Below, piece after piece: positions 2,918-35,947 of a stretch of 40,090 nt of DNA. The notes beneath the pieces were generated by a model. That model saw nothing but the letters and a program-made list of their open reading frames with translations. It was not told the DNA's origin and did no database searches. Source of the DNA: Clostridia bacterium (lineage in GTDB: Bacteria > Bacillota > Clostridia > Oscillospirales > UBA644); contig JAFSAH010000049.1 in NCBI GenBank assembly GCA_017441125.1, forward strand, positions 1 to 40,090. The letters are read 5' to 3'. The position numbers and the translations under genes were made by a program. Positions within the stretch are counted from its first letter, which is position 1. Each line of letters starts with the position of its first letter.

Positions 2918-2954
2918 CAGCATAGTTTACAATCAAAAGCGATGGGTCTATAAT
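2918..2954 (+). promoter_or_regulatory. Sigma-A promoter P1 of the vWA/MoxR/LRR operon
   Basis: TTTACA (2926-2931), 17 bp, TATAAT (2949-2954). A near-identical copy lies at 21873-21909. Confidence 0.8.
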
Positions 2955-3008
2955 AATATTATCTATAAATTTTTATACAGATTTTAATGTAAAAAGGAAC
3001 GCAATGCC

Positions 3009-4391: not shown

Positions 4392-4403
4392 GGAGGAAGG
4401 AAA

Positions 4404-5345: not shown

Positions 5346-5372
5346 TTCGTAGCGGAATAAGGAGGATTAAAA

Positions 5373-7351: not shown

Positions 7352-7370
7352 TACATAAGGAGGAACAAAA

Positions 7371-8519
7371 ATGAGCGATTTTGTAATTGAAAACGGAATT
7401 CTTAAAAAATATACCGGAGCGGGCGGAGATGTTGTTATTCCTGAAGATGTTAAGGAAATTGATTCGCACGCTTTTGAAGGAAACAAAAAAATTAAAAACG
7501 TGATTATTCCTGCTGGCGTTGGGCTGATCGGCTATTGTGCATTCAAAGGCTGTTCCGCTTTGGAATCGATTCATATTCCGGAAAGTATTCTCAGGTTTGA
7601 AAATATGTCTTTTTCCGGATGTACAAAGCTCAAAAAAGTTTTCATCCCAAATCCTCATGCTTTTGCTTATGGAGCTTTTGAAAACTGCCGTACTCTTGAA
7701 TACATAAAAGCTTCTGAAGAAACTCTTGAAGGAATTTTCCGCGGTGCCGGCGACAAACTTAAAATAAACATATCTTATGGATATCTTTGCAGTGATGATA
7801 AAAGTGAAAAATACGAAGAAACCTGCAAATGGTTCAAGAAAAAAATTCTTCCGATAATTTTCGAAAATGATAACTCAAAAGCTCTTTCTAAGCTTTTCGG
7901 AATGTATAAGAAACCAATAAAAATCAATGATATCGACGAATATCTTTCCTTCGTTACCGAAAAACCGGAATTGACCTCTTTTTTGCTTGAATATAAAAAC
8001 AAGTATTATTCTTCCGAACAGGTCAATAAAAATGCAGAAACCAATTCTGAAAAGGAACTTGGAATCAAGCCTAAAACCCTTGCAGAATGGAGAAAAGTGT
8101 TTGCAATTTCTGATATAGGTGGAAAATGGGTGCTTGAAAAATATAAAATTAAAGAAGCCTTTGTAGAAATCCCCGAAAAAATCGGAACAAAACCTGTTAT
8201 AGAACTTCAGAATACTTTCGAAAACCACGAAGAAATAACTTCCGTTTTGATTCCAAACAGTATTGAAATAATCGGATGGAACGTTTTTGACGGAACTTCC
8301 ATTGAAGAAATATCCATACCGGAAAATGTTATGGGGTTAGGAATGTTTTCATTTGCTAATTGTGAAAAACTTAAAAAAGTAACATTCTGCGGCAATAATT
8401 GTACTGAAATTGATGAAACCGCTTTCCGGAACAGTACAAACGTTGTAATCCACGCTCCAGCAGGTAGCTACGCCGAAACTTATGCAAAAGAAAACAACAT
8501 TCCGTTTGTGGCGGAATAA
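7371..8519 (+). CDS. BspA-type LRR protein (LRR-2): LRR, central helical module, LRR
   Basis: MSDFVIENG start, LRR_5-like repeats, central ...LLEYKNK...EKELGIK..TLAEWRK.F, and an IHAPAGSYAETYAKENNIPFVAE end. Confidence 0.9.
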   Translation: MSDFVIENGILKKYTGAGGDVVIPEDVKEIDSHAFEGNKKIKNVIIPAGVGLIGYCAFKGCSALESIHIPESILRFENMSFSGCTKLKKVFIPNPHAFAYGAFENCRTLEYIKASEETLEGIFRGAGDKLKINISYGYLCSDDKSEKYEETCKWFKKKILPIIFENDNSKALSKLFGMYKKPIKINDIDEYLSFVTEKPELTSFLLEYKNKYYSSEQVNKNAETNSEKELGIKPKTLAEWRKVFAISDIGGKWVLEKYKIKEAFVEIPEKIGTKPVIELQNTFENHEEITSVLIPNSIEIIGWNVFDGTSIEEISIPENVMGLGMFSFANCEKLKKVTFCGNNCTEIDETAFRNSTNVVIHAPAGSYAETYAKENNIPFVAE

Positions 8520-8531
8520 GGAGGAACAAAA

Positions 8532-9671
8532 ATGAGCGATTTTGTAATTGAAAACGGAGATTTGATCAACTATACCGGAAAAGGCGGAGATGTTGTCATC
8601 CCGGAAGGCGTCACTAAAATCGGAAGCTTCACATTTTACGGATGTGAAAATCTCCGAAGCATCGTAATTCCGGAAGGTGTTACTGAAATCGGATACAACG
8701 CATTTTACGGATGTGAAAATCTCCAAAGTTTTATTATTCCAAAAGGTGTCACAAAAATCGGACCTTTGGCTTTTTCTGGTTGTCATAATCTCAGGAGTAT
8801 TGTCATTCCGGAAAGTGTAAATGAAATCGAAATCAAAGCATTTTCCGGATGTAAAAATCTCCAAAGTGTTGTAATTCCGGAAAGTGTTAATAAAATTGGA
8901 AATGGAGCGTTTTGCGGATGTGAGAAACTTGCTGATGAAAACGGATTTGCGATAGTCCGAAATGTTCTTTACAGCTATCACGGAAATGATTCGAATGTTG
9001 TTATCCCAAAACATGTTGAAAAAATAGGAAAATCTTCATTTTTCCATTGCGAAAAACTCCAGAGTATCGTTATCCCCGAAGGAATAACCGAAATTGAGAG
9101 TTCAGCATTTGTTGGTTGTGAAAATCTCCAAAGAGTAGTTATTCCAAATAGTATTATTAAAATCGGAGAATCGATTTTTGACAGTTGCCCGAACATTTTG
9201 TACGTATATGCCGAAAAAAACATAATTAATATAATCAGCAACAAAAATATGCAAAAAACATGCGCTGTTGTTGTCACATCTTCTGAGAACAATGTTTCTT
9301 TTTTAGCTTATTGTTCAAAAGCAAAAACTGATAACTTTACCAATTTTGTTAAAACCGGTAAATGGAACGCTTATGATATCGAGCTTTTGAATAATGGACC
9401 AACATATAAATATAAACCCGGAGTCCGTTTCCTCGGCGCTCTCGGAAGGCTCAACGACCCGGTTGATTTGACCGATGAATGCAAAGAGCTTTACATGGAA
9501 CTTCTCGTTAAAAACGCGAAGAAACTCATCCCCATTGCGGAAGAAATCGACTGTCCTGAAATCGTCGAAATGATGATAAAACACGAAATTATTAACGACG
9601 GAAACAGAAAAGCCATCAACAAATTGCTTGCTGCTTCCGCAAATGAAAAAATTGCCGCTTTTGCGGAATAA
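8532..9671 (+). CDS. BspA-type LRR protein (LRR-3)
   Basis: 23-aa LRR units visible as 69-bp DNA repeats. The C-terminal ~160 aa are shared with LRR-4. Confidence 0.9.
   Translation: MSDFVIENGDLINYTGKGGDVVIPEGVTKIGSFTFYGCENLRSIVIPEGVTEIGYNAFYGCENLQSFIIPKGVTKIGPLAFSGCHNLRSIVIPESVNEIEIKAFSGCKNLQSVVIPESVNKIGNGAFCGCEKLADENGFAIVRNVLYSYHGNDSNVVIPKHVEKIGKSSFFHCEKLQSIVIPEGITEIESSAFVGCENLQRVVIPNSIIKIGESIFDSCPNILYVYAEKNIINIISNKNMQKTCAVVVTSSENNVSFLAYCSKAKTDNFTNFVKTGKWNAYDIELLNNGPTYKYKPGVRFLGALGRLNDPVDLTDECKELYMELLVKNAKKLIPIAEEIDCPEIVEMMIKHEIINDGNRKAINKLLAASANEKIAAFAE
8598..8930 (+). repeat. 69-bp tandem repeat units encoding LRRs
   Basis: CATTTTACGGATGTGAAAATCTCC occurs exactly at 8632-8655 and 8701-8724. 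About five degenerate units. Confidence 0.85.
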
Positions 9672-9682
9672 GGAGAAAAAAC

Positions 9683-10762
9683 ATGAGCGATTTTATAATT
9701 GAAAACGGAACACTTATTAAATATGCAGGAAAATCCAAGAGAGTTGAAATTCCAAAAGATGTTGCTGTAATAGGGTCGGAAGCGTTTCGTTTCTGCAGAA
9801 ATCTTCAAACTGTTGTTATTCCCGAAAGTGTAACCGAAATAGGGGACAGTGCTTTTAGTGATTGTGAGAATCTGCGAAATGTCGCTATTCCTGAAAGTAC
9901 CCAAAAAATAGGTGGCTGTGCTTTTTGGGGATGCGAAGGCCCTCAAAACATCACTATTTCAAATAATGTTACAGAAATAGGGTATGGCGCATTTTTCCAT
10001 TGTAAAAGTCTTAAAAGTATATCCGTCCCAGCAAAAGTAACTAAAATTGAGGAAGGTACTTTTAATTGGTGTGAAAACCTTGAAAATGCCGTAATTCCCG
10101 AAGGTGTTGTTAAAATCGACAAAGAAGCATTTCATTGGTGCCAAAATCTTCAAGCTGTTATTATTCCTGAAAGTGTAACAATTGTTGAGAACAGAGCATT
10201 TGATGGGTGTGAATCATTGAGAAAAATCGTTATTCCACAAAAAATTGCTAAAATCGGTGAATATGCTTTTTATGGTTGCCCCAACATTTCTTACATATAT
10301 GCCGGCGAAAACATAACCAGCATGATCAACAATAAAAACATGCAAAAAACATGTGCTACTGTTGTTACTCATTCCGAAAACGGTATAGGTTTTGTTGCTT
10401 ATTGTTCTAAGGCGAATTCGGACAATTTTACCGATTTCCTTGAAAATAATAACTGGAATGCATACGATATTGAGCTTATTAATAATGGACCTACTTACAA
10501 ATATAAACCTACTGTCCGTCTTCTCGGCGCTCTCGGAAGACTCAACGATCCGGTTGAACTGACCGACGAATGCAAAGAACTTTACGTTGAGCTTCTCGTT
10601 AAGAACGCAAAGAAACTCATCCCCATTGCGGAAGAAATCGACTGTCCCGAAATCGTCGAAATGATGATAAAACACGAAATTATTAACGACGGAAACAGAA
10701 AAGCCATCAACAAACTGCTGAAAGCTTCGGCAAACGAAAAAATTGCCGCCTTTGCGGAATAA
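9683..10762 (+). CDS. BspA-type LRR protein (LRR-4), paralog of LRR-3
   Basis: MSDFIIENG start, LRR units, and a C-terminus nearly identical to LRR-3 (...LLVKNAKKLIPIAEEIDCPEIVEMMIKHEIINDGNRKAINKLL...). Confidence 0.9.
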   Translation: MSDFIIENGTLIKYAGKSKRVEIPKDVAVIGSEAFRFCRNLQTVVIPESVTEIGDSAFSDCENLRNVAIPESTQKIGGCAFWGCEGPQNITISNNVTEIGYGAFFHCKSLKSISVPAKVTKIEEGTFNWCENLENAVIPEGVVKIDKEAFHWCQNLQAVIIPESVTIVENRAFDGCESLRKIVIPQKIAKIGEYAFYGCPNISYIYAGENITSMINNKNMQKTCATVVTHSENGIGFVAYCSKANSDNFTDFLENNNWNAYDIELINNGPTYKYKPTVRLLGALGRLNDPVELTDECKELYVELLVKNAKKLIPIAEEIDCPEIVEMMIKHEIINDGNRKAINKLLKASANEKIAAFAE

Positions 10763-10786
10763 ATTTTCATCCGAAAGGAGAAAAAC

Positions 10787-12307
10787 ATGGAAACGGATTA
10801 TGCGGAAAAATATAAAGCCATAAACGGAAACAAAATCCTTGCTTCGATGAAGCTTCTCGGTGTAGCTTTGCCGAAAGTGAAACTTAAAGACGGAACCGAA
10901 GCGCCTGCGGAACTTTTTAAGTTTATCCTTGTTTCCTATGGCCAGATGTTCAAAAAGTTAAAACCGGAAATTGTTCCGGAAGCGGACGAAGCTGCCGCTT
11001 TGCTTTCTTACGATTCTCTTTGCGAAGCAATGGAACAAGTGAGCGGAAATATGAACTGCGCCGCATACCCTTGCTTCATTCCGCTTCTTTGCCGCTTCGG
11101 AAGCGCAAAACAGATAAAATATATGATTTCCGAGTTCAAAAGATGGGGCGAATGGTCGCAATTTGGCGCAAAAGGTAGAAAAGCGCAGGATATCTTCAAA
11201 ATCTGCATTGTTCTGAGCAACACCCATGAAGCAGTCGTCTTTTGTGAAAAGCAGGGTATGCTCCCTGCATATGCAAACCTTCGGGGCGTTTCCGTTGATG
11301 ATATTTATGAAAACAATCTTTTTGACTTTGGTTTTGACGAAAACGGAATCCGCATTTTTGATCTCGGCATCGCCAAAATTGAAGTCAGCCTTACGGATGA
11401 GCTGACCCTTTTCCTTTTCAACACCGCCACCGGAAAAGAAGTGAAATCCATTCCGAAAAAGAACATTGATCCGGAAGTTTACGCGAAGGCATCCGCCGAT
11501 TTTGCGGATATGCGCCAAAATCTTAAAAAGGCCGTAAAAATCAAAAACGACAAACTTTTCAGCGACTTCATCGAAGGAACGGAATTTGAAGCGAAAAAAT
11601 GGAAAAACAGTTATTTTAAAAATCCACTCCTCAATAAAATCGGAAGCATTCTTGTCTGGTCGCAAGGAAAAAACACTTTTATTCTTAACAGAAAAAGCGT
11701 TTTCTGCGCCGACGGGACAGAATATTCCCTTACCGATGAAAAAATAAAACTTGCGCACCCCATGGAGATGAGCACCGAAGACGTCAGTGCGTGGCAAAAG
11801 TATTTTACTTCCCATAATCTGAAGCAGCCTTTCTCCCAGATCTGGGAACCGATTTATGATGAGAAAGATATCAAACCGGACAGATACAAGGATTGCAAAA
11901 TCCGCGCACTTTATCTTAAAAATCAGCAAAAACGCGGAATAAGCTGTGAATGGTATGAAGGTGAATGGTACGAATCCCATGAATTTTATATAAACGGTTT
12001 TTCTGCTGATGCAAGAGGAACCGACGAACCGGACAGGCTCGAAATTGCTGAACTTGTTCCTGAAAAGTGGAACAGAAGAGCTAATATGATTATCGCCTAT
12101 CTTGACCGCATTACGGTTTATGACAGGATAAAAAAGGACGACGCAAGCGTTATGAACCAGATGGAGCGGTTCACCCTTGCACAGATAACCGAATTTATCA
12201 GGATTGCGCAGGAAAACAACGCAACAAACGTAACGGCGCTTCTGCTCAATTATAAAAATGAAAACTTCGGCGATTTCGACCCTATGGCGGAATTCACTCT
12301 TGATTAA
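10787..12307 (+). CDS. DUF4132-domain protein with C-terminal helical module shared with the LRR proteins
   Basis: FDFGFDENG...K..KSIPK, W...Y..NPLL...LVW and IKLAHP.EM...W...F....KQPF.Q are characteristic of DUF4132. It ends ...VTALLLNYKNENF. Confidence 0.8.
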   Translation: METDYAEKYKAINGNKILASMKLLGVALPKVKLKDGTEAPAELFKFILVSYGQMFKKLKPEIVPEADEAAALLSYDSLCEAMEQVSGNMNCAAYPCFIPLLCRFGSAKQIKYMISEFKRWGEWSQFGAKGRKAQDIFKICIVLSNTHEAVVFCEKQGMLPAYANLRGVSVDDIYENNLFDFGFDENGIRIFDLGIAKIEVSLTDELTLFLFNTATGKEVKSIPKKNIDPEVYAKASADFADMRQNLKKAVKIKNDKLFSDFIEGTEFEAKKWKNSYFKNPLLNKIGSILVWSQGKNTFILNRKSVFCADGTEYSLTDEKIKLAHPMEMSTEDVSAWQKYFTSHNLKQPFSQIWEPIYDEKDIKPDRYKDCKIRALYLKNQQKRGISCEWYEGEWYESHEFYINGFSADARGTDEPDRLEIAELVPEKWNRRANMIIAYLDRITVYDRIKKDDASVMNQMERFTLAQITEFIRIAQENNATNVTALLLNYKNENFGDFDPMAEFTLD

Positions 12308-12319
12308 GGAGGAAAAAAC

Positions 12320-13807
12320 ATGAGCGATTTTGTAATTGAAAACGGAGTTCTTAAAGAATACACCGGTACAGACAAAAATGTTGTAATTCCGGACGGAGTA
12401 ACAACAATCGGAATTGCTGCTTTTATTCATAGTAATCTTACAACTGTTTCCATTCCACAAAGTGTTACTAAAATTAAAGTATGCGCTTTTTCGTGTAGCA
12501 ATCTTAAGGAAATAGCAATACCTGAAAACGTTACCGAAATTGAAGAAAGAGCTTTTATAAATTGCAAAAATTTAAAAAGCGTATTTCTTCCCTCACATTT
12601 AGAGGTTTTCGGTAAAGGAGTATTTGAAGATTGCAGCCAGACGCTTGAAATTTATTGCAACGAAAAAATTTTTACTATGCTTGATGGAAAAGCCAAAGAT
12701 AATCTGGCAATTCTTTGGCTGACTAACCAAGCAACTTTTGAGAAAAATGAAGTTGCAGCAATTGAAAAGTATATCAGCCGAACCGGAAAAAGGCTTATTT
12801 CGCTGATTTCTGGTGATGACGGTGAAGCTGCTTCAAAACTTCTAAACTGTTGTAAAATTAAACTTGAAGATCTTAATGTTTTAATTTCCGAATATAACGA
12901 TTGCAAACACAATGAAATTCTGGCAGCTCTTATGGACTATAAAAACAGAAATTATTCTGTTCAGGAAGAAGAAGCTCTGGTAAATGAAAAGCTTGAAAAA
13001 GATTTGGGAATCAAAGAGCTTACTTTAGCTGATCTTAAAAAAATCTTTAAATTTAAAGAAGTTAATGGTGCTATTTGCATCAGCGGTTATAAAGGAAACG
13101 ATTCTTTCGTCAATATTCCTGCATTTGTTGACGGAAAACCGGTAAAATCCATCCACGACAAAGCATTCCAAGGTTTAGAAGAAGTCACAACCGTTATTCT
13201 TCCCGAAGGCATAACAGATATTGGTAAAAACGCTTTTTCAGGTTGTGGCATTACCGATATCACACTTCCGGAAAGCATTGAAACTATTGGCAACAATGCT
13301 TTTTCCGGTTGTGCGTTGGAGCGAATAGTGATCCCGAATAATACCATAAGTTTGGGGTGGTTTGTTTTTGCACACTGCAATTTACTTAAAGAAGTTATTC
13401 TTCCGGATAGTCTTCAGGAAATAGGATGTTATGCGTTCCTTTTCTGCGAAGCTCTAGAAAACATTGTTCTGCCTGATGGAATTAAAAAAATCGGAACCGA
13501 AGCTTTTGCAAACTGCTGCAATTTAGCAAATGTTATACTGCCCGATTCCAAAGCAAAAATTGGAAACGGCATTTTTACAAACTGTGAAAAGCTCGAAAAA
13601 ATCGTGATTCCCAAAAACATAAAATTACTTGATAACTATGCTTTTGATGGATGCAATAAACTCAAAAAAGTCACTTTTGAAAGCGCAAAAACAAAAATTG
13701 GGGAGAATGTTTTCCGTTATTGCAAGAAAGTTGAAATCCACGCTCCTGCTGGAAGTTTTGCGGAAGCCTACGCAAAAGAAAACAACATTCCGTTTGTGGC
13801 GGAATAA
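12320..13807 (+). CDS. BspA-type LRR protein (LRR-5): LRR, central helical module, LRR
   Basis: MSDFVIENG start, central ALMDYKNRNYS...LEKDLGIKELTLADLKK, and an IHAPAGSFAEAYAKENNIPFVAE end. Confidence 0.9.
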   Translation: MSDFVIENGVLKEYTGTDKNVVIPDGVTTIGIAAFIHSNLTTVSIPQSVTKIKVCAFSCSNLKEIAIPENVTEIEERAFINCKNLKSVFLPSHLEVFGKGVFEDCSQTLEIYCNEKIFTMLDGKAKDNLAILWLTNQATFEKNEVAAIEKYISRTGKRLISLISGDDGEAASKLLNCCKIKLEDLNVLISEYNDCKHNEILAALMDYKNRNYSVQEEEALVNEKLEKDLGIKELTLADLKKIFKFKEVNGAICISGYKGNDSFVNIPAFVDGKPVKSIHDKAFQGLEEVTTVILPEGITDIGKNAFSGCGITDITLPESIETIGNNAFSGCALERIVIPNNTISLGWFVFAHCNLLKEVILPDSLQEIGCYAFLFCEALENIVLPDGIKKIGTEAFANCCNLANVILPDSKAKIGNGIFTNCEKLEKIVIPKNIKLLDNYAFDGCNKLKKVTFESAKTKIGENVFRYCKKVEIHAPAGSFAEAYAKENNIPFVAE

Positions 13808-13827
13808 AATGGTGGAAAGAGGTAACC

Positions 13828-14952: not shown

Positions 14953-17720
14953 GACCTTTAAAACTTATAATGTCCGCTTTCGGACCTTATGCCGGGGTTG
15001 AGGAAATAGATTTTGCTACCTTCGGAAGTTCCGGAATCTATCTTATAACGGGTGATACCGGCGCCGGAAAAACAACAATTTTTGATGCGATAACATTTGC
15101 ACTTTTCGGTAAAGCCAGCGGCGACAACAGGGAAAACGATATGCTCCGTTCAAAATATGCCGATGCAAAAACAAAAACTTTTGTTGAGCTTGATTTTGAA
15201 TATCGCGGAGAAACTTATAAAGTAACCCGCAATCCTTCCTATACCCGTCTGAAAGAACGTGGAGAAGGCGAAACAACACAGCAAGCGGAAGCAACTCTTA
15301 ATCTTCCGTCCGGAGATGTTGTTACAAAAAACGGAGACGTTACAAAAAAAATCGAAGAAATCATAGGTGTTGACTGCGATCAGTTTTCCCAGGTTGCAAT
15401 GATTTCCCAGGGAGCTTTCCGGGAACTTCTTCAGGCAAGCACCGAAGAACGCCAGAAAACTTTCCGCAAAATTTTCAAAACCGGTGATTATGAAAAACTT
15501 CAGGAAAAGCTTTCTAAAAAAGCAAACGAGGTAAGCAGGGAATGCAGTTCTGAAAACGATTCTATAAAGCAATCCATAAAAGACATTGAAATCGGAGAAG
15601 GTTCTTCTTACAAGGAAGAAGTGGAAAGTCTTAAAGAAAATTCTTTCCCTTCATGTTCGGAAGCAATTGAACTCCTGAAAAAAATAATTTCCGAAGATAC
15701 GGAGCTTAAAGAAAATATCGAGAAAACAAAAGACGAACTTTCCAAAAAGAAAGAGGTAATCATCAAAAAACTGGCGGAATCCGAAGCATACGATAATGCA
15801 AAACGCCAGTTGGATGGAAACACGGAAAAGCTTGAAAATGAAAAAATAAACCTCGAGGATTTTAAGACAAAACTTTCTGAAGCGGAAAATTCAAAACCGA
15901 GGCAAAAAGAAATATCCGAAACCATTGCGGTAATAAACGCTCTTTTGGAAGATTATGCAAAGCGCGATACCCTGATTTCCGAAAGAAAACGCGCCGAAGA
16001 GGAAAAACAGAATGAAGAAAACGCAAAGGAGAAGGCCGTTGCTGAACAGGAAAAATATAAAGCGGAATTCGATGAACTGAAAAAAGAATCCGAAATGCTC
16101 AAGGATTCTGCTGTTAATTTCGAAAAACTCGAGAACGCAAAAAGAGAACTCAATATCCGCAAAGAAAAATACGAAACGCTCATAACGGATATCAAAAATT
16201 ACAATCGGGAAAAAGAACTTCTCACCAAAAAACAGGATGCTTATGCTGAGGCTGCCAAAGAATGCGAACATCTTGGAAATGAATACAGCAGAAGAAACAG
16301 CGCTTTCCTTGATGAACAGGCCGGAATAATTGCTTCGAACCTTACCGACGGAATTCCTTGCCCCGTTTGCGGTTCTATTCACCACCCGAACCTTGCACAG
16401 CTTTCCGAAAACGCTCCGACAGAAGCGGAAGTTAAAGCATCAAAAAAACTTTATGAAGAGGCAAACAAAAAATCCTCTGAACTCAGTTTGGAGGCCGGAA
16501 AGCAAAACGGAATTGTTGAAACCGCTAAAAAGGCAATTGAAGACAAACTTTCCGAGCTTCTTTGCGGAATACTTTTTGAAGAAGCAGAATCTGCCACAAA
16601 AGAAAAAATCTGTGCTTTAAACGAAGAATTTGATGGTTTGGAAAAGCAATCACGTTCCGAAAAAGAAAACGCAGAAAGAAAAAAGGAACTTGACGAAAAT
16701 CTTATTCCGAAAGCAGAAAACACAGTTAAAGCGGCGGAAGAAAAATATCGCGAAGCTGATAAAAACATCGGAATGCTTTCTGAAAAAATAAAAAGCTTTA
16801 TTGAACAGACGGAAGATCTTAACAAAAAACTTGAATTCAAGGACAAAGCAGAGGCGGAAGCAAAAATCGAAGTTCTTGATGCTGAACGCCGGAAACTTGA
16901 AGAAACATATAATGCAGCAAAAAAAGAGTGTGATGATTGCCAGAACAGAATTTTCGTTCTTTCCGGAAGCATCGAACAGCTTGAAAAACAGCTTGAAAAA
17001 GCTCCGGATATCGGAACAGATGACCTTAAATCAGAACAGGGAAGAATTGAAGTTTCGCTTTCTGATGCCGAGGGTGATTTTGGTGCTGTAAATACCAGAA
17101 TCGCAATAAACGGTAAAATCCGGGATGAAATTTCTCATAAGTCGAAGAAAATTGAAGAACTTCGCGAAAAAGAATCCTGGCTCAGAGCGCTTTCCGATAC
17201 CGCAAACGGAAATCTTTCTCAGAAGAAAGAAAAAATCACACTTGAAACTTATATACAGACTTCCTATTTTGACAGAATACTTCGCCATGCGAATATACGT
17301 CTTCAAAAAATGTCCGGAGGACAGTATGATTTTGTCAGAAAAGAAAAAGCGGACCAGTTCAAATCCAAGTCCGGACTTGAACTGAACATCATCGACCACG
17401 TTAACGCGACGGAACGCAGCGTAAACACCCTTTCCGGCGGTGAATCCTTCCTTGCCTCCCTTGCGCTGGCGCTTGGACTTTCCGACGAGGTACAGATGTC
17501 CACAGGCATTCGCATAGATACTCTCTTCATTGATGAAGGATTCGGTTCCCTTGACCCGGAAGCTCTCCGTAAAGCATACAACACTCTTGCAAGCCTTACC
17601 GAAGGCAACCGCCTTATCGGAATAATTTCCCACGTTTCGGAACTTAAAGAACGCGTCGATAAACAAATCGTTGTCAAAAAAGATAAATCCGGCGGAAGCA
17701 GCGCAAAAGTCGTTGTTTAA
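14949..17720 (+). CDS. sbcC: Nuclease SbcCD subunit C (Rad50-like SMC ATPase)
   Basis: GDTGAGKT, coiled coils, Zn-hook CPVCGS, LSGGE, FIDEGFGSLD, ISHV; ATGA overlap with sbcD. Confidence 0.95.
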   Translation: MRPLKLIMSAFGPYAGVEEIDFATFGSSGIYLITGDTGAGKTTIFDAITFALFGKASGDNRENDMLRSKYADAKTKTFVELDFEYRGETYKVTRNPSYTRLKERGEGETTQQAEATLNLPSGDVVTKNGDVTKKIEEIIGVDCDQFSQVAMISQGAFRELLQASTEERQKTFRKIFKTGDYEKLQEKLSKKANEVSRECSSENDSIKQSIKDIEIGEGSSYKEEVESLKENSFPSCSEAIELLKKIISEDTELKENIEKTKDELSKKKEVIIKKLAESEAYDNAKRQLDGNTEKLENEKINLEDFKTKLSEAENSKPRQKEISETIAVINALLEDYAKRDTLISERKRAEEEKQNEENAKEKAVAEQEKYKAEFDELKKESEMLKDSAVNFEKLENAKRELNIRKEKYETLITDIKNYNREKELLTKKQDAYAEAAKECEHLGNEYSRRNSAFLDEQAGIIASNLTDGIPCPVCGSIHHPNLAQLSENAPTEAEVKASKKLYEEANKKSSELSLEAGKQNGIVETAKKAIEDKLSELLCGILFEEAESATKEKICALNEEFDGLEKQSRSEKENAERKKELDENLIPKAENTVKAAEEKYREADKNIGMLSEKIKSFIEQTEDLNKKLEFKDKAEAEAKIEVLDAERRKLEETYNAAKKECDDCQNRIFVLSGSIEQLEKQLEKAPDIGTDDLKSEQGRIEVSLSDAEGDFGAVNTRIAINGKIRDEISHKSKKIEELREKESWLRALSDTANGNLSQKKEKITLETYIQTSYFDRILRHANIRLQKMSGGQYDFVRKEKADQFKSKSGLELNIIDHVNATERSVNTLSGGESFLASLALALGLSDEVQMSTGIRIDTLFIDEGFGSLDPEALRKAYNTLASLTEGNRLIGIISHVSELKERVDKQIVVKKDKSGGSSAKVVV

Positions 17721-17778
17721 AACCGCATTAGCATCAAACAAAAAAGCCCCCGTGCTCAAATGAGCACGGGGGGTCTTG
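17721..17778. terminator. Bidirectional terminator; second copy of the 2441-2499 repeat
   Basis: AACCGCATTAGCATCAAACAAAAAAGCCCCCGTGCTCAAATGAGCACGGGGG vs AACCGCATGAGCATCAAACAAAAAAGCACCCGTGCTCAATATGAGCACGGGTG. Confidence 0.8.
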
Positions 17779-17784
17779 TTATCG

Positions 17785-20700
17785 TCATTCGACAATATAA
17801 TATACCTTTCTTCTTTCCTCAACTCTTCTGATTTTTCCGGATATATAAAGTCGTCTGAGATTATCAGAAAACAAAAAACTGTTTTCAATTCCAAGGTTTT
17901 CAGCAATCTCTGGCACGGTGAAATATGTGCCTTTGTTCAGGCAAAGAAAAGCATATGCTGCTTCCGATAATGCCTCGCTTGATAATCTTGGCACCTTCGG
18001 TTCTTTAGGAAGCAAAGTTCCGCTTTTATCAAGATCGATATTCTTTGCATACTTGCCAACATTTGCCGGAATCATTTTTTTAGCGGCCTCGAACTTTTCT
18101 TTAGCTTCGGCTATTTTTTTGTTTTCATCTGTTATGTTACGTTCGAGAGTATTAATCTCTTTTTTCTTTTCACTTTTTTCGCCGAATGCAAAAAAGCCCA
18201 GATGTTCCAATTCGTTTTTTAATGTTCTTATCTGTTTTTCATAACCATCGATTCTTTTTTGGGATTTGCTTACTTCTGAATCACGTTTCTGTTCAAGTTC
18301 TTTTTCAAGTTCCTCACTCTTTTTGGAAATCATTTTTTCTTTCCAGGCTTCACGCTTTTCCTGTGCTTCTGCAAATGCCGCTTCCCATTCTTTATGTTCC
18401 TTTATTCTTTTTACAAAAGTTCTAGCTTCTTCCTGTAATTTCCGCTCGTGTTCCTCTCTCTCCAAACGGCGTCTTTCTTCTTCCTTACGTCTTTCTTTTT
18501 CAGCCTTGCGAGCTTTTTCCTCCCGAATACGCTTTTCTTCTTCTCGACGCTTTTTTTCCAAAAGACGTTCTTCTTGGCGTTTTTCCTCCAAAAGAAGTTT
18601 TTCTTCCCGCTTCTTTATTATTTGTTTTTCATTCTTTTCGGAATTTTCGGACGGTCCTTTATACTCATCCGACATCATAAACCAAAAGTCATTTTCGCTC
18701 AAAGCTTTTATCGATTTACCTTTGGCTTGATTGAGTTCTATCGCGCGTTTTACTTTATTTGTATTTCCGGAACTGTTATCGCCGATTATTATATAATCTG
18801 TTGCAAGAACTGTTGTGCTTTTGATTTCTCCGCCATTTTGTAAAATGTAATTTTCCATTATATCATAATAGAAAATTTCGGTAAGCACAAAAATTTTACC
18901 TTTAATCAATGGCTTTTTTGTACACTGTCCTATTTTTTGTATAGTGTCTTTTACTTCGGGTGCGGTTTTAATTTTAGACGGAGAAATTCTTCCTTTGCTG
19001 TCTACTTTTGGAGAATTGTCAACAAAATCATCTTCTGAATCTTCGTTATCTTCATCATAGAGTTTATTTTTGTAGTTCTCAAGTAACTCTTGGCGTCTGC
19101 TTTCGTAATCTTCAAGCAATTCCTGTGCTTCTTCGTCACCGGAATCAGCAAGATCAATTACAAAATCCATATATTCCGTTACATTTTTCAGATTACCGTA
19201 ATATTCGTCAACATCGGCCTCGATTATCATTCCGGGTTGACCTGCTTTTTTGCCGTCTACTTTGACTATGTCGCCGATTTTAAGGTAACCGTATCCTCTG
19301 TAAACGTAAGAACGGTTATCCGCAAATTTTACTTTGACGTTTCTGTAATAATATCCCGGACGTTCGGACGCCTTTACCCATTTGTCGCTTTCCTTGCCAT
19401 TAACAACATATTCTTCGAATTTTTTTGCAAAAACCGCAGAGGCAATATCTTTAATAACTTTGTTTTTTATGTCATCGCTGCATTCATAAAATTCAACATA
19501 AGGGATGCCCGCCGATTTGCATGCTTTTCTGATATTTCTGAATTCTTCCATTTTTTCAAAAAGACCGTTTGTCACCCGAACAACAGCTTTTATGTCATCT
19601 TTTTTATAAAGAACAAACGTTGCTTTCGCACAAGGTTTTTTGAAATCCGGGGCGAATTTTTCCGAAGGAACATTCTCTTCAATTTTAAATTCTTTAAATT
19701 CTTCAAAAATTATTTTTCTGAAGAACTCAAGATTAATAAGAGTGGGTTCCGGTGGAACATATTCTTTAAATGCAAGCTGCTTTTTACCGTCTTTTTCAAA
19801 AACATAATCAACAGTATTCCATTCTTCTTCAAACGGGAAATTATATACCACAGTTTCCCGGTCACCGGTTTGTATATAGTCAAAAGATTCACGGTAATGC
19901 TTGATGTCCGGATGGCAATCATAGAACCACTGCCGATCCGCTTTAGGATCGAAGCCCCCGATAAATTTACTTGATGTAACAAAAGGATACCCGGAAGCAG
20001 AATAGACCGCCTTAACATCCCACATTTTAAAATCGTAGAAAAAAGCAATCATCTTAAGATTCGGAAAGGTTTTCAGTATATCTTCGGCAAATCCGGGTCG
20101 GACTTCAAAAATGCCTTCAATATCAGTCGCACATTTTCTTTCTTTCATACCTTTTTTGTCAAGGTATTCGATTGCCGCATCAATCTCATTTTCAAGTCCC
20201 CGGAAAACAGGGTTACAGAACTTTTTATTATCGTTTTCGATATAAAAAATATCGTACCCGTCAAAATAATTCTTATTATTTTTCGGATCATAATCCGTAA
20301 TTTCAAAAAGTTCTTCGATAGGCTTGTTCTCTGTTTTAATGGGAACACCGTTTTTATAGCAAATATGTTTTGGATCCATTTCTTTTACATTCACCTTTGT
20401 GTTGCGGATTATATATTTGGTTTTGCTGACAGGATATGGAGCATCCATTCCGAGGCATTTTGTTACATTAGAAACTTCTTTTACGCATTCTCCGCCCCAA
20501 CCGAAATCAACAAAAACAAGATCTCCGACTTTTACTTCATCTTCCGATTTTGCAATATAGTTCCATCCTTTCCCGTCAACAGTAATGGAACAATATATGT
20601 ATTCTTTAAGTTCCCATTCTTCCGTTTTTAAAATATGATTTCGTTTGTAAAAATTTTCTGCTTTGTTTTCAATATTTTCTCGGATATATTTATTCATTTT

Positions 20701-21477
20701 TCTGATTGGAATATCCGGATTCTGTTCTGCAAGTTCTGCAAGGTTTGCAGGAAGAATATCTTTGTTTTCATAAACTTTTTTTAGCTCACAAAGATATTTT
20801 TCAAAATCCTCCGGGGAAGAAACCATCGCTTCAGAAGGCCTTTCTTTTTTACAAAGCAAACCGTTTTCTATAAGGATTTTTGCTGCAGTTTCTCCGCATT
20901 GTTTGGCAACAAGGTTGGAAAAACCGGAATTAACGATATCTCTGTTGTCATTTATTAATTCATTGATCGTTTCCGGAGGTTTTTTATCGGAATAACGCTT
21001 TTTCAGCTCGGCGATTATATCATCAATTGAGCCGCTGCTTCCTTTAAGTATGCCAATCTTTATGAGGTAATCTTTAAGAGACGTTCCGAAAAGTTCCGTT
21101 GCATTATTTGCCATAGTTTTTAAAGATGGTGCAAGATCCGGGTTTGCTTTTTCAAGGTCACCAACTTTGCTGAATTTGGGACCATCCGGATAGCGTTTTT
21201 TCAGTTCTTCAATAATAGCGGCATAATCGTTGCTTTTCGGGCGGCCGGTGATATTGCGTTCAACGGTAAAACCATAGGCATTAAGGAAACTGTCACCATC
21301 CGGATAACCCAGTTCGCGATAAAGAAAAGTTACTTTCTCTGCCCATTTTTTGTGGTCACGCTGAAGGTTACGAACAATTCCGTCGGGATATGTTGCTTTG
21401 AGATCATTCAGAAGGTTGTTGAGTTTTGTCTTTACGTTCAGCGGTTCATTACCCTTTGCTATCGGCATTATATCCAC
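17785..21477 (-). CDS. Large multidomain protein: N-terminal helical repeats, two beta-barrel-like units, BRCT, coiled coil, C-terminal winged helix
   Basis: Repeats I(I/L)xELKKRY. BRCT-like KGKIFVLT...NGG....V...TDYIIIG...K...A...LSENDFW (~18680-18910). E/K/R-rich coil. Terminal FTVPEIAENLG...LRRLYISGKIRR...VYY. The true start may be the ATG at 21468. Confidence 0.75.
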   Translation of the reverse strand: MDIMPIAKGNEPLNVKTKLNNLLNDLKATYPDGIVRNLQRDHKKWAEKVTFLYRELGYPDGDSFLNAYGFTVERNITGRPKSNDYAAIIEELKKRYPDGPKFSKVGDLEKANPDLAPSLKTMANNATELFGTSLKDYLIKIGILKGSSGSIDDIIAELKKRYSDKKPPETINELINDNRDIVNSGFSNLVAKQCGETAAKILIENGLLCKKERPSEAMVSSPEDFEKYLCELKKVYENKDILPANLAELAEQNPDIPIRKMNKYIRENIENKAENFYKRNHILKTEEWELKEYIYCSITVDGKGWNYIAKSEDEVKVGDLVFVDFGWGGECVKEVSNVTKCLGMDAPYPVSKTKYIIRNTKVNVKEMDPKHICYKNGVPIKTENKPIEELFEITDYDPKNNKNYFDGYDIFYIENDNKKFCNPVFRGLENEIDAAIEYLDKKGMKERKCATDIEGIFEVRPGFAEDILKTFPNLKMIAFFYDFKMWDVKAVYSASGYPFVTSSKFIGGFDPKADRQWFYDCHPDIKHYRESFDYIQTGDRETVVYNFPFEEEWNTVDYVFEKDGKKQLAFKEYVPPEPTLINLEFFRKIIFEEFKEFKIEENVPSEKFAPDFKKPCAKATFVLYKKDDIKAVVRVTNGLFEKMEEFRNIRKACKSAGIPYVEFYECSDDIKNKVIKDIASAVFAKKFEEYVVNGKESDKWVKASERPGYYYRNVKVKFADNRSYVYRGYGYLKIGDIVKVDGKKAGQPGMIIEADVDEYYGNLKNVTEYMDFVIDLADSGDEEAQELLEDYESRRQELLENYKNKLYDEDNEDSEDDFVDNSPKVDSKGRISPSKIKTAPEVKDTIQKIGQCTKKPLIKGKIFVLTEIFYYDIMENYILQNGGEIKSTTVLATDYIIIGDNSSGNTNKVKRAIELNQAKGKSIKALSENDFWFMMSDEYKGPSENSEKNEKQIIKKREEKLLLEEKRQEERLLEKKRREEEKRIREEKARKAEKERRKEEERRRLEREEHERKLQEEARTFVKRIKEHKEWEAAFAEAQEKREAWKEKMISKKSEELEKELEQKRDSEVSKSQKRIDGYEKQIRTLKNELEHLGFFAFGEKSEKKKEINTLERNITDENKKIAEAKEKFEAAKKMIPANVGKYAKNIDLDKSGTLLPKEPKVPRLSSEALSEAAYAFLCLNKGTYFTVPEIAENLGIENSFLFSDNLRRLYISGKIRRVEERRKVYYIVE

Positions 21478-21483
21478 TTCCTT

Positions 21484-21705
21484 TTATCTTTTTAGTCTTC
21501 TTTCAAGTCTGTCTATGTCTGCCTGTGTGAAATTTTCGGAATCAATACAGCACTTCATGCAGGCGCGTTCAAAAACGGTGTTATCAACGTAAGAAACGTC
21601 CATGTTCTCAATTTCTCTTGCGACCCGCTCTATGTGGTCATCGCGGATTCCGTTGTAACCCGCTTCGTCAATAAGTCCAAGCTGCCAGCCGTCGAACATT
21701 CTCAT
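21484..21705 (-). CDS. Small hypothetical protein (73 aa), first gene of the divergent operon
   Basis: GGGAG RBS. A TTGATT-N16-TATAAT match lies upstream on the minus strand (21759-21732). It is 6 bp from the next gene. Confidence 0.7.
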   Translation of the reverse strand: MRMFDGWQLGLIDEAGYNGIRDDHIERVAREIENMDVSYVDNTVFERACMKCCIDSENFTQADIDRLERRLKR

Positions 21706-21872
21706 GCACTCCCTTGCTTTAATCTGATTCCATTATATAACTTTAATTTAAATAATCAATAAACGAACTGCATAATTGGAGAGGAAAAGAAAAACAAAAT
21801 GTTATCGGTGCGATTTTGGAACAAATTTATGTATATTTTCGACAAATTCCTCTAAAAATGGCGATGAACCGA

Positions 21873-21909
21873 CAGCATAGTTTACAATCAAAAGCAAAAA
21901 GTCTATAAT
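21873..21909 (+). promoter_or_regulatory. Sigma-A promoter P2 (copy of P1)
   Basis: CAGCATAGTTTACAATCAAAAGC is identical to 2918-2940. TTTACA (21881-21886), 17 bp, TATAAT (21904-21909). Confidence 0.8.
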
Positions 21910-21938
21910 ATTCGTATACTAATATAACTCAGAAAAGT

Positions 21939-22805
21939 GTGGCTGCGATGACTTATTTTGATGAATACGAAAACCTTGTTTTTACAAATTCCGTTGATAA
22001 ATCCGATCCGGAATGGAGGAATTTTATCGCCTCAATAAAGCGAAGAAAAAGGCACTTTGCGGAGCTTCTTGTTCTTGAAAAAAGCGGGGAGAAGATGAAG
22101 AATTTTCTTTTACTTTGGAAAAAAGTTTCGCTCGATGACATAAACGAGTATCTTGAGATGAGCACGAAAAATGATGCCGGCGAAGTTACAGCTGTTTTAC
22201 TCGAATACAAACGGGAAAACTATTCCGACGAAAAAATCGAAAAACATGAAAACGAGAAAGCGGAAAAAGCTCTTGGCACAAAGGAACTTTCCCTTGCGGA
22301 CTGGCGGAAAACTTACAGAGTAAGAATAGAAAACGACGAAGCTGTAATCTCAAAATATAAAGGCTGTGATTCTTATGTGGAAATTCCCGCTTTTATCGGT
22401 AAAAACAAAGTAATAAAGATTGGTGAGCAGGCTTTTAACTGCAATCAGGAAATTGAAAGCGTAACCGTTCCGGAAGGTGTTAACGAGATAGAATTTTATG
22501 CTTTTTCAAAATGCAAAAACCTGAAAAACGTCACTATTCCCGAAACGGTTACAAAAATGGGGTTCGGAATCTTTTTCGGCTGCACAAATCTTGAAAAAAT
22601 CACCTTGCCGGAATATCTTGAAGAAATTTCACAATGCACCTTTGATAAATGTCCGAATCTGAAAGAAGTTCATATCCGCGGAAAAAACACGAAAATTCAT
22701 TGGCATAATTTCAAAGGATCGAAGGATTTTACAATTTATGCTCCGGAAGGAAGCATTGCCGAAGATTTTGCATTAAAGCACAAAATATCTTTCATTGCAG
22801 AATAA
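21939..22805 (+). CDS. LRR protein (LRR-6): helical module at the N-terminus, then BspA-type LRRs
   Basis: VTAVLLEYKRENYS...AEKALGTKELSLADWRK, LRR units, IYAPEGSIAEDFALKHKISFIAE. The start is uncertain (GTG 21939 or ATG 21948). Confidence 0.85.
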   Translation: MAAMTYFDEYENLVFTNSVDKSDPEWRNFIASIKRRKRHFAELLVLEKSGEKMKNFLLLWKKVSLDDINEYLEMSTKNDAGEVTAVLLEYKRENYSDEKIEKHENEKAEKALGTKELSLADWRKTYRVRIENDEAVISKYKGCDSYVEIPAFIGKNKVIKIGEQAFNCNQEIESVTVPEGVNEIEFYAFSKCKNLKNVTIPETVTKMGFGIFFGCTNLEKITLPEYLEEISQCTFDKCPNLKEVHIRGKNTKIHWHNFKGSKDFTIYAPEGSIAEDFALKHKISFIAE

Positions 22806-22817
22806 GGAGGAATAAAG

Positions 22818-24092
22818 ATGAACAATTTCGATATCAAAGACGGAATTTTATACAGTTACAAAGGTGACGAAGAAATTGTTGAAATTCCCGAAGGCGTCAA
22901 AGAAATAATATGTGATGCATTTGTTTGCCGCTACAATTTAAAAAGCGTTATTATTCCGGAAAGCGTTTCAAAAATCCACTCTAATGCCTTTTACGAATGC
23001 AGAAATCTTAAAAATATAACATTAAAAAATGATAATACTGAAATCGATGGATTTTCTTTTCATAATTGTCCATTGGTGGGAGGTTATATATCGTACGGAA
23101 ACACTCTTGTCAAATACAATGGAAATCCCGGCAATAATGAACCTGAAAGTATTATCATTCCGGATGGAATAACGAAAATCGATGAAGGAGTATTCAAAAA
23201 ATTTTTTTCACTTAAAGATGTTGTTATTCCCGAGGGCGTTACTGAAATCGGAACGAGTGCATTTGAATATTGTTTGAATCTTGAAACCGTAAAAGTTCCA
23301 AAAAGTATAGAAATAATTAAGAGCAATGCATTTTACGGGTGCTGTAATCTCAAGAAAATTTCGCTTCCAAGAAATTTCAATAACATCGGCAAAGGAGCTT
23401 TCCGTCAATGCCGAAAACTTGCAAAAAAAGGTCTTATAATAGTGAAAAATATCCTTTTTGGCTCTTCTTATGGGACAAGTGATGTTATCATTCCGGAGGG
23501 AACAGTTAAAATAGATGATTGCGCATTTTACAAAGATGTATCTGTCGAAAGCATCGTTATTCCGGAAAGCGTCAAAGAAATCGGGGAGCATGCTTTTTAT
23601 GGTTGCACTAAACTGAAAAGTGTTCAGCTTAACGGAAATGTTGAAAAAATCGGGAGATATGCATTTTGCGAATGCAGAAAACTTGCTAAAGACGGTCTTG
23701 CTATTGTAGGTGATTATTTGTTTGACGCTTTCGGACTGGATATGATTGATATTGTTGTGCCCAACAACGTAAAAGAAATCGGACCCGGTACATTCGGCAA
23801 TTGTCTTAACCTTCGCAGAATTACACTTCCGGAAGGGCTTGTTAAAATTCACGGAGATTTCAGCGGTCTTTCTCTTCTTGAAGAGGTTCGGGTTCCTGAA
23901 GGGGTTACGGAAATCGGTGATGAAGTATTTTATGAGTGCCGCAGTCTCAGAAACATTTTTCTTCCGAAATCACTTGCTAAAATTGGTGATGATGCTTTCA
24001 AAAAATGCAAAAAACTTACAATTCACGCTCCCGCCGGAAGCTATGCGGAAACCTATGCAAAAGAAAACGGTATTCGGTTTGTGGCGGAATAG
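22818..24092 (+). CDS. BspA-type LRR protein (LRR-7)
   Basis: TAAGGAGG RBS, MNNFDIKDG start, many LRR units, IHAPAGSYAETYAKENGIRFVAE end. Confidence 0.9.
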   Translation: MNNFDIKDGILYSYKGDEEIVEIPEGVKEIICDAFVCRYNLKSVIIPESVSKIHSNAFYECRNLKNITLKNDNTEIDGFSFHNCPLVGGYISYGNTLVKYNGNPGNNEPESIIIPDGITKIDEGVFKKFFSLKDVVIPEGVTEIGTSAFEYCLNLETVKVPKSIEIIKSNAFYGCCNLKKISLPRNFNNIGKGAFRQCRKLAKKGLIIVKNILFGSSYGTSDVIIPEGTVKIDDCAFYKDVSVESIVIPESVKEIGEHAFYGCTKLKSVQLNGNVEKIGRYAFCECRKLAKDGLAIVGDYLFDAFGLDMIDIVVPNNVKEIGPGTFGNCLNLRRITLPEGLVKIHGDFSGLSLLEEVRVPEGVTEIGDEVFYECRSLRNIFLPKSLAKIGDDAFKKCKKLTIHAPAGSYAETYAKENGIRFVAE

Positions 24093-24174
24093 TTAATTGC
24101 AGAAATAATATTTCCATATACATATTTTCGACAAAATTCAATGTTAATAGACAATTAGAAGCGGAGGTAAAATA

Positions 24175-27558: not shown

Positions 27559-27571
27559 AGGTGGTGTATTT

Positions 27572-35946: not shown

Positions 35947-35947
35947 A

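Follow-up and report, generated by a model that had tools for sequence, protein, structure and literature searches.

Concerted evolution by gene conversion has been described for tandem receptor paralogues, as in the accessible parts of the reports on TLR1/TLR6 (PMC2077338) and on the plant RPP8 NLR clusters (PMC6771003). For MoxR–vWA systems, the model outlined in the text of Kaur et al. 2020 (PMC7159879) assigns peptide capture to the vWA domain and remodeling of the resulting complex to MoxR. Here we analyze an operon in which both subjects meet: a row of tandem leucine-rich repeat (LRR) genes that accompanies a VWA gene, a MoxR gene and a DUF4132 gene on a contig of a Clostridia bacterium (Oscillospirales, UBA644; GenBank assembly GCA_017441125.1, contig JAFSAH010000049.1). 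The whole stretch of 40,090 nucleotides is called the window in the following. The LRR genes share nearly identical DNA at their ends, termed handles below, and differ strongly in their interiors. We consider that these near-identical junctions and the shuffled gene bodies between them result from ordinary homologous recombination and not from a dedicated cassette machine, a reading to which we assign a probability of roughly 0.6.

The window represents an entire contig of an 873-kb genome bin that is 57% complete (41% GC); its relatives come from animal guts and belong to the Oscillospiraceae or to other Clostridia. Based on the listing of open reading frames (ORFs) and Pfam, a single co-oriented gene row has the order VWA/DUF2201 – L0 – small ORF – MoxR – L1 – L2 – L3 – DUF4132 – L4, and a second LRR pair, L5–L6, is located 8 kb downstream of it (Table 1). 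All seven L genes match the BspA-type family LRR_5 (PF13306) with 91 to 298 bits against a cut-off of 27.7 (E values 5e-26 to 6e-90). As read from the translations, their products begin directly with an LRR cap, without signal peptide or visible anchor, and are predicted to be cytoplasmic. Neither an LRR_5 gene nor a handle motif was found in the bin outside the window contig. We regard the L genes as tandem paralogues for cytoplasmic BspA-type LRR_5 proteins that form the variable parts of a conserved VWA(DUF2201)–MoxR–DUF4132 operon.

The repeats reported in the initial annotation were recovered by exact search. The 5′ handle is a 43-mer consisting of the Shine-Dalgarno sequence TAAGGAGG, the spacer AACAAAA, and an ATG plus eight codons (MSDFVIENG); its two identical copies mark the starts of L1 and L2, and no match occurred in 100 dinucleotide shuffles. 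The close variants announced near 9668, 12305 and 4418 turned out to be a copy at the L2/L3 junction with 8 mismatches (ungapped; its aligned identity is 88.6% over 35 nt), a second copy whose 3 mismatches all lie 5′ of the ATG (two within the spacer), and a partial copy in L0 preceded by three extra codons. The type A 3′ handle is a 36-mer (AKENNIPFVAE-stop) that is identical at the ends of L1 and L4, is found with 5 mismatches at the end of L6, and likewise has no match in shuffled sequences. As proposed, GCGGAATAA ends further LRR genes, namely L2 (9671) and L3 (10762). The 3′ end of both these genes is TTTGCGGAATAA, and the two unrelated types of C-terminal domain share the ending TTTG(TG)GCGGAATAA. 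BLAST comparison among the L genes gave 78–86% identity over ∼90 nt at the 5′ ends and 76–85% over 80–115 nt at the 3′ ends. L2 and L3 additionally share domain B (568 nt, 80.6% identical), in which identity climbs toward the 3′ end. All LRR genes, handles and repeats are in direct orientation.

The identity of the ends includes synonymous and non-coding positions while the interiors are divergent, as the initial annotation had stated. Expressed as the fraction of identical amino acids that use an identical codon, it amounts to 53/59 (0.90) for the first 15 codons of L1–L4 and to 34/39 (0.87) for the last 15 codons of L1, L4 and L6, as compared with 877/1760 (0.50) for the interiors of all 21 pairs of the seven LRR genes. 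Because codon identity drops beyond ∼15 codons (52/103 for codons 16–30 in the same 21 pairs), the homogenised tract is short, ∼45–60 nt at the 5′ and ∼36–45 nt at the 3′ end. This identity is not accounted for by codon bias: given the codon usage of the bin, the chance of all-identical codons is 5.3e-4 for MSDFVIENG and 7.7e-5 for AKENNIPFVAE, and the 3′ tract carries the rare codons CCG (0.16), GTG (0.10) and GCG (0.21). As a between-species baseline, the window was compared with LRR genes of other low-GC loci, which gave 843/1491 (0.57) for the first 15 codons, 290/596 (0.49) for the last 15 codons and 8452/20659 (0.41) for the interiors. A mild constraint is seen on 5′ ends in general, but both end values remain far lower than the 0.90 and 0.87 of the array. 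The proposal that end conservation goes beyond protein constraint and codon bias (chance values of ∼5e-4 and ∼8e-5) was thus borne out, with the qualification that much of it is a protein cap found throughout the family.

The exact 26-nt start, with two degenerate positions, occurs in records of two other species among 185,579, with one genome each: the nearest relative described below and a bin from water-deer gut. In a water-deer gut bin (G042), at least five copies of ∼60–90 nt with 75–89% identity to the 5′ end of L4 are spread over three contigs (C162, C20 and C99); the remaining operon is without DNA similarity there. The elevated identity at the ends recurs within the loci of other arrays: the 21 of 160 loci that have at least two such genes give totals of 350/501, 4563/8484 and 187/261, which include the nearest relative and some near-duplicate loci.

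In many other species, LRR genes beside MoxR start with M..DF(V/I)IENGVL.KY.G, and many also end with AE.YAK..NIPF.AE, each time in different codons. An alignment of 37 homologues of L1 revealed invariant or near-invariant columns clustering at residues 4–24, 205–244 and 360–381. The AlphaFold model of L1, with a mean predicted local distance difference test score (pLDDT) of 96.5, consists of two β-solenoid domains. An N-terminal β-hairpin (strands 4–7 and 10–14) opens the first LRR solenoid, residues 116–241 form a helical linker, a second hairpin (244–258) opens the second solenoid, and a strand (359–362), a helix (367–374) and a further strand (379–381) provide the C-terminal closure. Since the invariant columns at both termini coincide with these strands and the helix, the conserved ends of the L proteins are structural caps. 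L0 corresponds to an N-terminal half that ends at EYKNR, and L5 to a C-terminal half that starts within the linker.

At five junctions the gap between stop and start is 11–12 nt, and each contains TAAGGAGG or a close variant: GAA-TAA runs into GGAGG, thereby forming this sequence ∼8 nt ahead of the following ATG. Over its full length, TAAGGAGG is complementary to the anti-Shine-Dalgarno tail of the 16S rRNA. Such a layout is typical of translational coupling, and the junctions may well couple translation of neighboring LRR genes. The type A 3′ handle also includes a hairpin, ATTCCGTT-TGT-GGCGGAAT, of –7.5 kcal/mol, a stability equaled in only 0.6–1.6% of synonymous recodings. It is located at 8493–8512 and 13781–13800, with an 8-bp stem and a 3-nt loop, within the last 21 coding nucleotides; it makes use of the rare codons CCG, GTG and GCG and extends to the stop codon, shortly before the next ribosome-binding site. 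The type B end of L2 folds with –6.9 kcal/mol (1% of recodings), and the 3′ ends of the nearest relative fold alike, one E-to-G change preserving a wobble pair; the hairpin-bearing ends are related to each other. As a family-wide element the hairpin was dismissed, since only 5 of 130 ends (about chance), and 2 of 18 AE-terminated ends, reach a fraction of ≤0.05. It may be a lineage-specific RNA feature or a product of chance.

We then compared order and content of the array with the nearest relative, a bin from sheep gut (locus L011 of genome G041) with ∼91% DNA identity. Collinear blocks cover positions 3009–4488 (91.7%), 5829–8889 (91.4%) and 10418–13807 (88.7%), and the ParM region at 37385–39952 is 87–90% identical. 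The arrays are not collinear throughout, while the VWA protein, MoxR and the DUF4132 protein stay at 94%, 97% and 95% protein identity, respectively. Among the LRR proteins, L1 (94%) and L4 (83%) are well conserved, L2 and L3 reach 50% (379 vs 310 amino acids) and 55% (359 vs 516 amino acids), and L0 matches with 39% over its first 136 residues only (313 vs 691 amino acids). The small ORF is unmatched in the relative, where it is replaced, and two additional LRR genes follow L4 there, between two 3′ handles. Of the insertion, loss and reordering postulated initially, we thus observed gain or loss of two genes and replacement or remodeling of L0, L2 and L3, and no reordering. An origin of the last 130 nt of L4 from an X2-like donor was also considered and ruled out, as L4 is 72% identical to its orthologue in this stretch and 59% identical to X2.

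Five breakpoints separate the two arrays. Two of them lie at handle edges, at ∼4436 immediately 3′ of the 5′ handle of L0 and exactly at the stop codon of L4, the end of its 3′ handle. The other three are located a few bases 5′ of the MoxR start, at ∼8780–8890 within the LRR units of L2, and at 10418, the start of domain B in L3. For the orthologues, the ratio of nonsynonymous to synonymous divergence (dN/dS) is 0.06–0.19 at a dS of 0.19–0.48, with 0.15–0.19 for LRR genes and 0.06–0.10 for scaffold genes. Because dS swings from 0 to 0.48 along the gene, L1 is a mosaic. Conversion is well supported for domain B because its quartet sites conflict, 8 supporting the orthologous, 9 the within-genome and 5 the third grouping, a pattern typical of exchange. 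Beyond the 5′ handle, the sites of L1 and L4 favor orthology by 13 to 0 over within-genome grouping and thus indicate old orthologue lines. The nine-codon core shows no synonymous change between three orthologue pairs, and the spacer variants are mixed and matched over array positions between the two genomes.

The VWA–LRR–MoxR core recurs in most of 160 loci, with zero to six LRR genes each. Close pairs of loci show the same partition as the window and its relative: identities for VWA, MoxR and LRR proteins are 98.7%, 99.2% and 75.9% for L014/L015, 97.4%, 98.4% and 74.8% for L120/L123, and 97.2%, 97.6% and 74.6% for L118/L120, with extra LRR genes in L118 that are not present in L120. In the pair L108/L110, with four LRR genes against three, the values are 86%, 84% and 36–38%. 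The LRR differences in these other lineages are intragenic, with blocks of high synonymous (pS 0.25–0.45) and nonsynonymous (pN 0.16–0.21) difference adjoining unchanged blocks. The LRR genes at 6653–8134 of L120 and 8363–9982 of L123 (493 vs 539 amino acids) differ only by indels of whole repeats, apart from one synonymous and one nonsynonymous difference in total; this is repeat-number variation by intragenic recombination. In locus L018 of another species, an LRR gene (16766–18484) is apparently frameshifted near its end and reads through the usual FIAE-stop junction (...KIHSRIKEYC-stop as compared with ...KIKFIAE-stop).

Three samples (X3, X4 and X5) hold the array with 0–2 differences per listed contig; the exception is a 924-nt contig of X5 with 68 differences, which covers the gene for a 1230-aa protein outside the array. 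The contigs of the four runs investigated are ∼1 kb long and break at repeats. The alternative junctions or excised circles that the initial annotation had suggested searching for did not appear in reliable form in X3, X4 or X5, where the joints had sides of 20–30 nt and were not counted, and these contigs are too short to exclude them. In a pig-gut run (X7, ∼93–95% identical), two joints (7444>10523 and 7459>10520; sides, 72 and 87 nt) connect domain B with a 5′ end of the L1 type, which suggests another arrangement. Another X7 contig joins an intact type A end to the small ORF (joint 8503>5345, side of 38 nt). The X7 relative has a different LRR content. About 14 public runs, many of them from pig gut or feces, hold 20–28% of the sampled words of positions 4300–14000. 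A DNA search of 40 relatives gave weak matches only, and a search of metagenome contigs anchored on MoxR had a best match of 76% identity and returned no strain of the same species.

Based on these observations, we propose that the gene ends combine three layers. They encode the N-terminal β-hairpin cap and the C-terminal helix–strand cap, which are near-invariant throughout the family; they contain a compact junction (GAA-TAA into TAAGGAGG, ∼8 nt, ATG) whose sequence is observed and whose role would be translational coupling; and ∼40–60 nt per junction would be homogenised by ectopic gene conversion or unequal homologous recombination among paralogues and alleles. We infer homogenisation by conversion because the identity exceeds both the codon-bias and the cross-species baselines and because the site patterns conflict. 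Any common stretch, be it a cap, a junction, an LRR unit or domain B, could then serve as a crossover point for general recombination, which would yield replaced, chimeric or truncated genes as well as genes gained or lost between relatives. The design of the junction would keep every recombinant product translatable. Exchange would require no dedicated recombinase and would be evolutionary rather than programmed. In favor of recombination, L0 keeps an in-frame FVAE-stop remnant behind its stop. Conversion would be needed to raise the identity of the handles above the baselines, and lineage-specific selection on the handle core may act as well.

Several points weigh against this proposal. Three of the five breakpoints lie away from handles (MoxR start, LRR repeats and domain border). 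In the core of the 5′ handle, three quartets with the relative contain 0 concerted sites and no informative site at all, so nucleotide-level purifying selection explains this tract equally well. The 3′ hairpin is more stable than 98–99% of synonymous recodings, hinting at a structural selection that ordinary recombination does not require. For the array itself, the comparison covered a single close relative plus one set of divergent short contigs, too few to polarise gene gain and loss. Variability of the LRR genes is not universal, since a human-gut species with two such genes has the same ORF map in ∼25 samples, as judged from ORF lengths only. Finally, both translational coupling and the role of the operon, which follows the vWA-capture and MoxR-remodeling model of Kaur et al. 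2020 (PMC7159879), are predictions.

An explanation without any recombination would ascribe the conserved ends to selection on the cap peptides, an optimal Shine-Dalgarno sequence, an A/T-rich initiation region and a small RNA hairpin. The caps are indeed family-wide, TAAGGAGG is a full anti-Shine-Dalgarno complement, the nine-codon core is free of synonymous change in three orthologue pairs, identity of the first 15 codons is raised even between species (0.57 vs 0.41), and the hairpins of both end types beat 98–99% of synonymous recodings. We nevertheless consider constraint as the sole cause unlikely: the between-species values of 0.57 and 0.49 are far under the 0.90 and 0.87 within the array, the exact 26-mer is limited to this lineage, and the hairpin is not a family feature (5/130 ends at ≤0.05). 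Mixing and matching of the spacer variants across positions in two genomes, the conflicting site patterns of domain B and the non-coding handle remnant retained behind the L0 stop likewise count against pure constraint. In another scenario, the genes are recent tandem duplicates whose interiors were driven apart very fast by diversifying selection, before the ends had diverged; it would agree with the tandem arrangement in one orientation and with a dN/dS of the LRR genes somewhat above that of the scaffold (0.15–0.19 vs 0.06–0.10). It is very improbable, as the interior synonymous positions are already at baseline (codon identity 0.50), dN/dS is well under 1, and the paralogues are older than the split from the relative (13:0 orthology sites for L1/L4 beyond the handle). 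That repeats and gene order were created by mis-joining in the metagenome bin is hardly credible. The window is a contig of an incomplete bin, and assemblies of other samples, with their short contigs, are interrupted at the repeats. Across the L1/L2 and DUF4132/L4 junctions, however, an assembly obtained independently from a different host species is collinear and has the same handles, and the contigs of three samples match with 0–2 differences, one of them spanning L2/L3.

The initial annotation had gone further and regarded the junction with its flanks as a recombination handle maintained by selection, within an integrase-free cassette system through which whole sensor genes would be inserted, lost or reordered. 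Identity that spans non-coding and synonymous positions, the two breakpoints exactly at handle edges, the two extra genes of the relative between two 3′ handles, the remnant that persists behind the L0 stop, the shared ending TTTG(TG)GCGGAATAA of unrelated C-terminal domain types and the absence of a recombinase from the window would all be expected of such a system. We regard it as quite unlikely, given that the majority of breakpoints lie elsewhere, variation in other lineages is intragenic, no reordering was seen, three near-identical samples lack a reliable alternative joint (sides ≤30 nt) and the ends are protein caps anyway. Moreover, 36–48 nt of homology barely reaches the length at which RecA-type exchange becomes efficient. 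A cassette array is thus a partly fitting description of the outcome, with replacement, gain or loss, and two of five breakpoints at handles; a dedicated mechanism found no support, and no result supported selection of the junction as a handle. A broader version would make the VWA–MoxR–DUF4132 operon an intracellular recognition or immune-type system with LRR_5 proteins as exchangeable sensors, whose cap-plus-junction tracts, here with the rare-codon hairpin, are selected as standardised splice points for homologous recombination. We consider this doubtful and give it little chance. If true, whole sensors could be swapped, added or dropped with every product remaining in frame and coupled in translation, and bacteria would possess a counterpart of LRR-cassette receptor diversification that needs no recombinase.

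Ordinary homologous recombination agrees with the inventory of recombination functions. A search for tyrosine recombinases (PF00589) was negative for both the window and the incomplete bin, with controls matching in 14 of 14 genomes, and neither serine recombinases (PF00239) nor reverse transcriptases (PF00078) were found in the same search space. None of the 20 proteins scanned contains a recombinase domain, and Rfam has no element in the array. The designation as integrase-free was therefore accurate for the window, which contains no integrase, resolvase or reverse transcriptase.

Table 1. Genes, handles and promoter-like sites of the LRR array in the window.
Feature	Position	Strand	Source or remark
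Best promoter-like site, upstream of the VWA operon (TTTACA-17-TATAAT)	2926..2954	+	Consensus scan
VWA-like protein (DUF2201_N + DUF2201)	3009..4391	+	Pfam
L0	4404..5345	+	LRR_5 gene; N-terminal LRR and helical linker only; ends with linker motif EYKNR, then TGA
5′ handle, partial variant (L0)	4418..4439	+	
Remnant of type A 3′ handle, TTCGTAGCGGAATAA (FVAE-stop)	5346..5360	+	In frame, 3′ of L0 stop; followed by Shine-Dalgarno of next gene
Small ORF	5373..5843	+	156 aa, without Pfam family; 4-nt overlap with MoxR start
MoxR-like AAA+ ATPase	5840..7351	+	Pfam
5′ handle, copy 1	7355..7397	+	43-mer
L1	7371..8519	+	LRR_5 gene; N-terminal LRR, helical linker, C-terminal LRR
3′ handle type A, copy 1	8484..8519	+	36-mer
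5′ handle, copy 2	8516..8558	+	43-mer
L2	8532..9671	+	LRR_5 gene; 69-nt LRR units (8593–8937) and C-terminal domain B
Domain B of L2	9104..9671	+	Counterpart in L3 at 10195–10762
5′ handle variant, L2/L3 junction	9667..9709	+	
L3	9683..10762	+	LRR_5 gene with domain B
DUF4132 protein	10787..12307	+	Pfam
5′ handle, 3 mismatches	12304..12346	+	
L4	12320..13807	+	LRR_5 gene; architecture as L1
3′ handle type A, copy 2	13772..13807	+	36-mer
Second promoter-like site, ahead of L5	21881..21909	+	
L5	21939..22805	+	Linker and C-terminal LRR only; ends FIAE-TAA-GGAGG
L6	22818..24092	+	LRR_5 gene; divergent 5′ handle at 22802–22844
3′ handle variant, end of L6	24057..24092	+	

The regions 2912–2955 and 21867–21910 are 86% identical and each contain TTTACA-17-TATAAT, and the VWA operon and the L5–L6 pair appear to share a duplicated promoter module. 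A consensus scan identified a bidirectional terminator-like hairpin of 18 pairs upstream, at 2461–2499; on the plus strand within the array, only short terminator-like hairpins of 6 pairs each were found (8942–8959 and 10987–11002). The VWA protein carries a metal ion-dependent adhesion site (MIDAS; D320-T-S-G-S324) and a H79xxxH83xxxxH88 cluster, both invariant across 42 homologues, and its putative metal-dependent N-domain and ligand-binding VWA domain are probably both active. A predicted complex of this protein with the C-terminal LRR domain of L1 scored 0.00 against a mark of 0.32. PADLOC and NCBIfam contained no informative family for the VWA, MoxR, LRR or DUF4132 proteins: MoxR had one weak match to IetA (25 bits, with no stretch that passed), and matches of the LRR proteins were confined to LRR adhesin models and lay far below the cut-off.

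Directly 3′ of L4, positions 13808–21501 encode SbcD, SbcC and, on the minus strand, a 1230-aa protein without Pfam family. SbcC is a putative name, given from its translation. In the relative, two LRR genes and other ORFs occupy this place; the SbcCD stretch of the window has no DNA match anywhere in the genome of the relative, and a comparison with 56 kb of the relative's contig yielded no protein match. Further downstream, a 15.7-kb block (21697–37384) is missing between conserved flanks in the relative, where 22431–22625 and the sequence from 22705 onward are adjacent. The block contains L5–L6, a 1127-aa protein with a domain resembling the C-terminal domain of the RNA polymerase α subunit, a NYN-domain protein, a GajB-like UvrD helicase, a DEDDh exonuclease and a DruE-type helicase (27572–32269, E value 1.7e-171), and by its predicted gene content it looks like a defence island. 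A pemK RNA motif (38354–38452; Rfam RF02913, 45 bits) lies upstream of a gene for a ParM/ALP-type actin-like protein (38526–39449), which hints at a plasmid- or element-borne contig. The array stretch 2900–14000 had no match in a plasmid collection searched by megablast.

Taken together, the LRR genes are the single hypervariable part of a strongly conserved ATPase–VWA operon in several independent lineages of gut Clostridia. Specificity determinants of a conflict or recognition system would be expected to vary in this way, and the operon adjoins Druantia-like and Gabija-like genes. It provides a concrete and testable candidate for cytoplasmic LRR-based sensing in bacteria, and illustrates how recombinant genes could remain expressed by virtue of a compact coupling junction. 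The process, conversion and homologous recombination among tandem paralogues, is well known. As to the setting, no title or abstract in the literature searched reported a VWA(DUF2201)–MoxR–DUF4132 operon with LRR_5 genes, and it appears undescribed there.

Among systems with site-specific or templated rearrangement, integron cassette arrays are similar in that co-oriented genes lie behind one promoter, a conserved and partly palindromic element marks their 3′ ends, and content varies between relatives. An integron attC site is an imperfect palindrome of about 57–141 nt. In contrast, the repeat described here is coding and 36 nt long with an 8-bp hairpin, the cassettes are without exception paralogues from a single family, excised circles did not show up in the ∼1-kb contigs, and our search of the window and the incomplete bin found no IntI-type recombinase. 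Shufflons and other invertible cassettes differ by their recombinases, for which PF00239 and PF00589 gave no match, whereas genes and handles are all direct here; diversity-generating retroelements differ by their reverse transcriptase, which was not found in the incomplete bin, whereas all repeats here are direct repeats of paralogues. Antigenic variation from silent cassettes (pilE/pilS, vlsE) is similar in that conserved flanks guide homologous exchange without a site-specific recombinase; in the array, however, all copies are complete translatable genes without signal peptides and without a sign of high-frequency switching.

Regarding the proteins, the BspA-type LRR_5 surface proteins (PF13306), as portrayed in the accessible part of the report on the Trichomonas BspA-like family (PMC2843621), share the repeat type and the expansion into a variable family, whereas the L proteins have no visible signal peptide or anchor and are operon partners of an ATPase–VWA pair. 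The ternary conflict systems, to the extent that the text of PMC7159879 describes them, likewise associate highly variable components with a pair of proteins, a vWA protein whose MIDAS is intact and a MoxR AAA+ ATPase. Our MoxR matches AAA and AAA_5 (the bpMoxR profile gave 23 bits, below its cut-off of 27), the VWA protein matches DUF2201/VWA_2, and the operon is found beside DruE and GajB-like helicase defence genes. Its third components are LRR_5 proteins, DUF4132 and the small ORF instead of VMAP, iSTAND, FtsH or β-propeller proteins; the searchable text of Kaur et al. 2020 (PMC7159879) contains 0 hits for DUF4132 and 1 for LRR. With TLR1/TLR6 (PMC2077338) and RPP8 (PMC6771003), as far as the accessible parts of these reports extend, the array shares tandem LRR paralogues, short tracts kept alike by exchange, diverging ligand-facing parts, mosaic alleles, and gene birth and loss. 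The operon sets this combination in a bacterial context, with predicted cytoplasmic LRR_5 proteins, homogenised inter-gene junctions that include the ribosome-binding site, and a coupling to VWA and MoxR.

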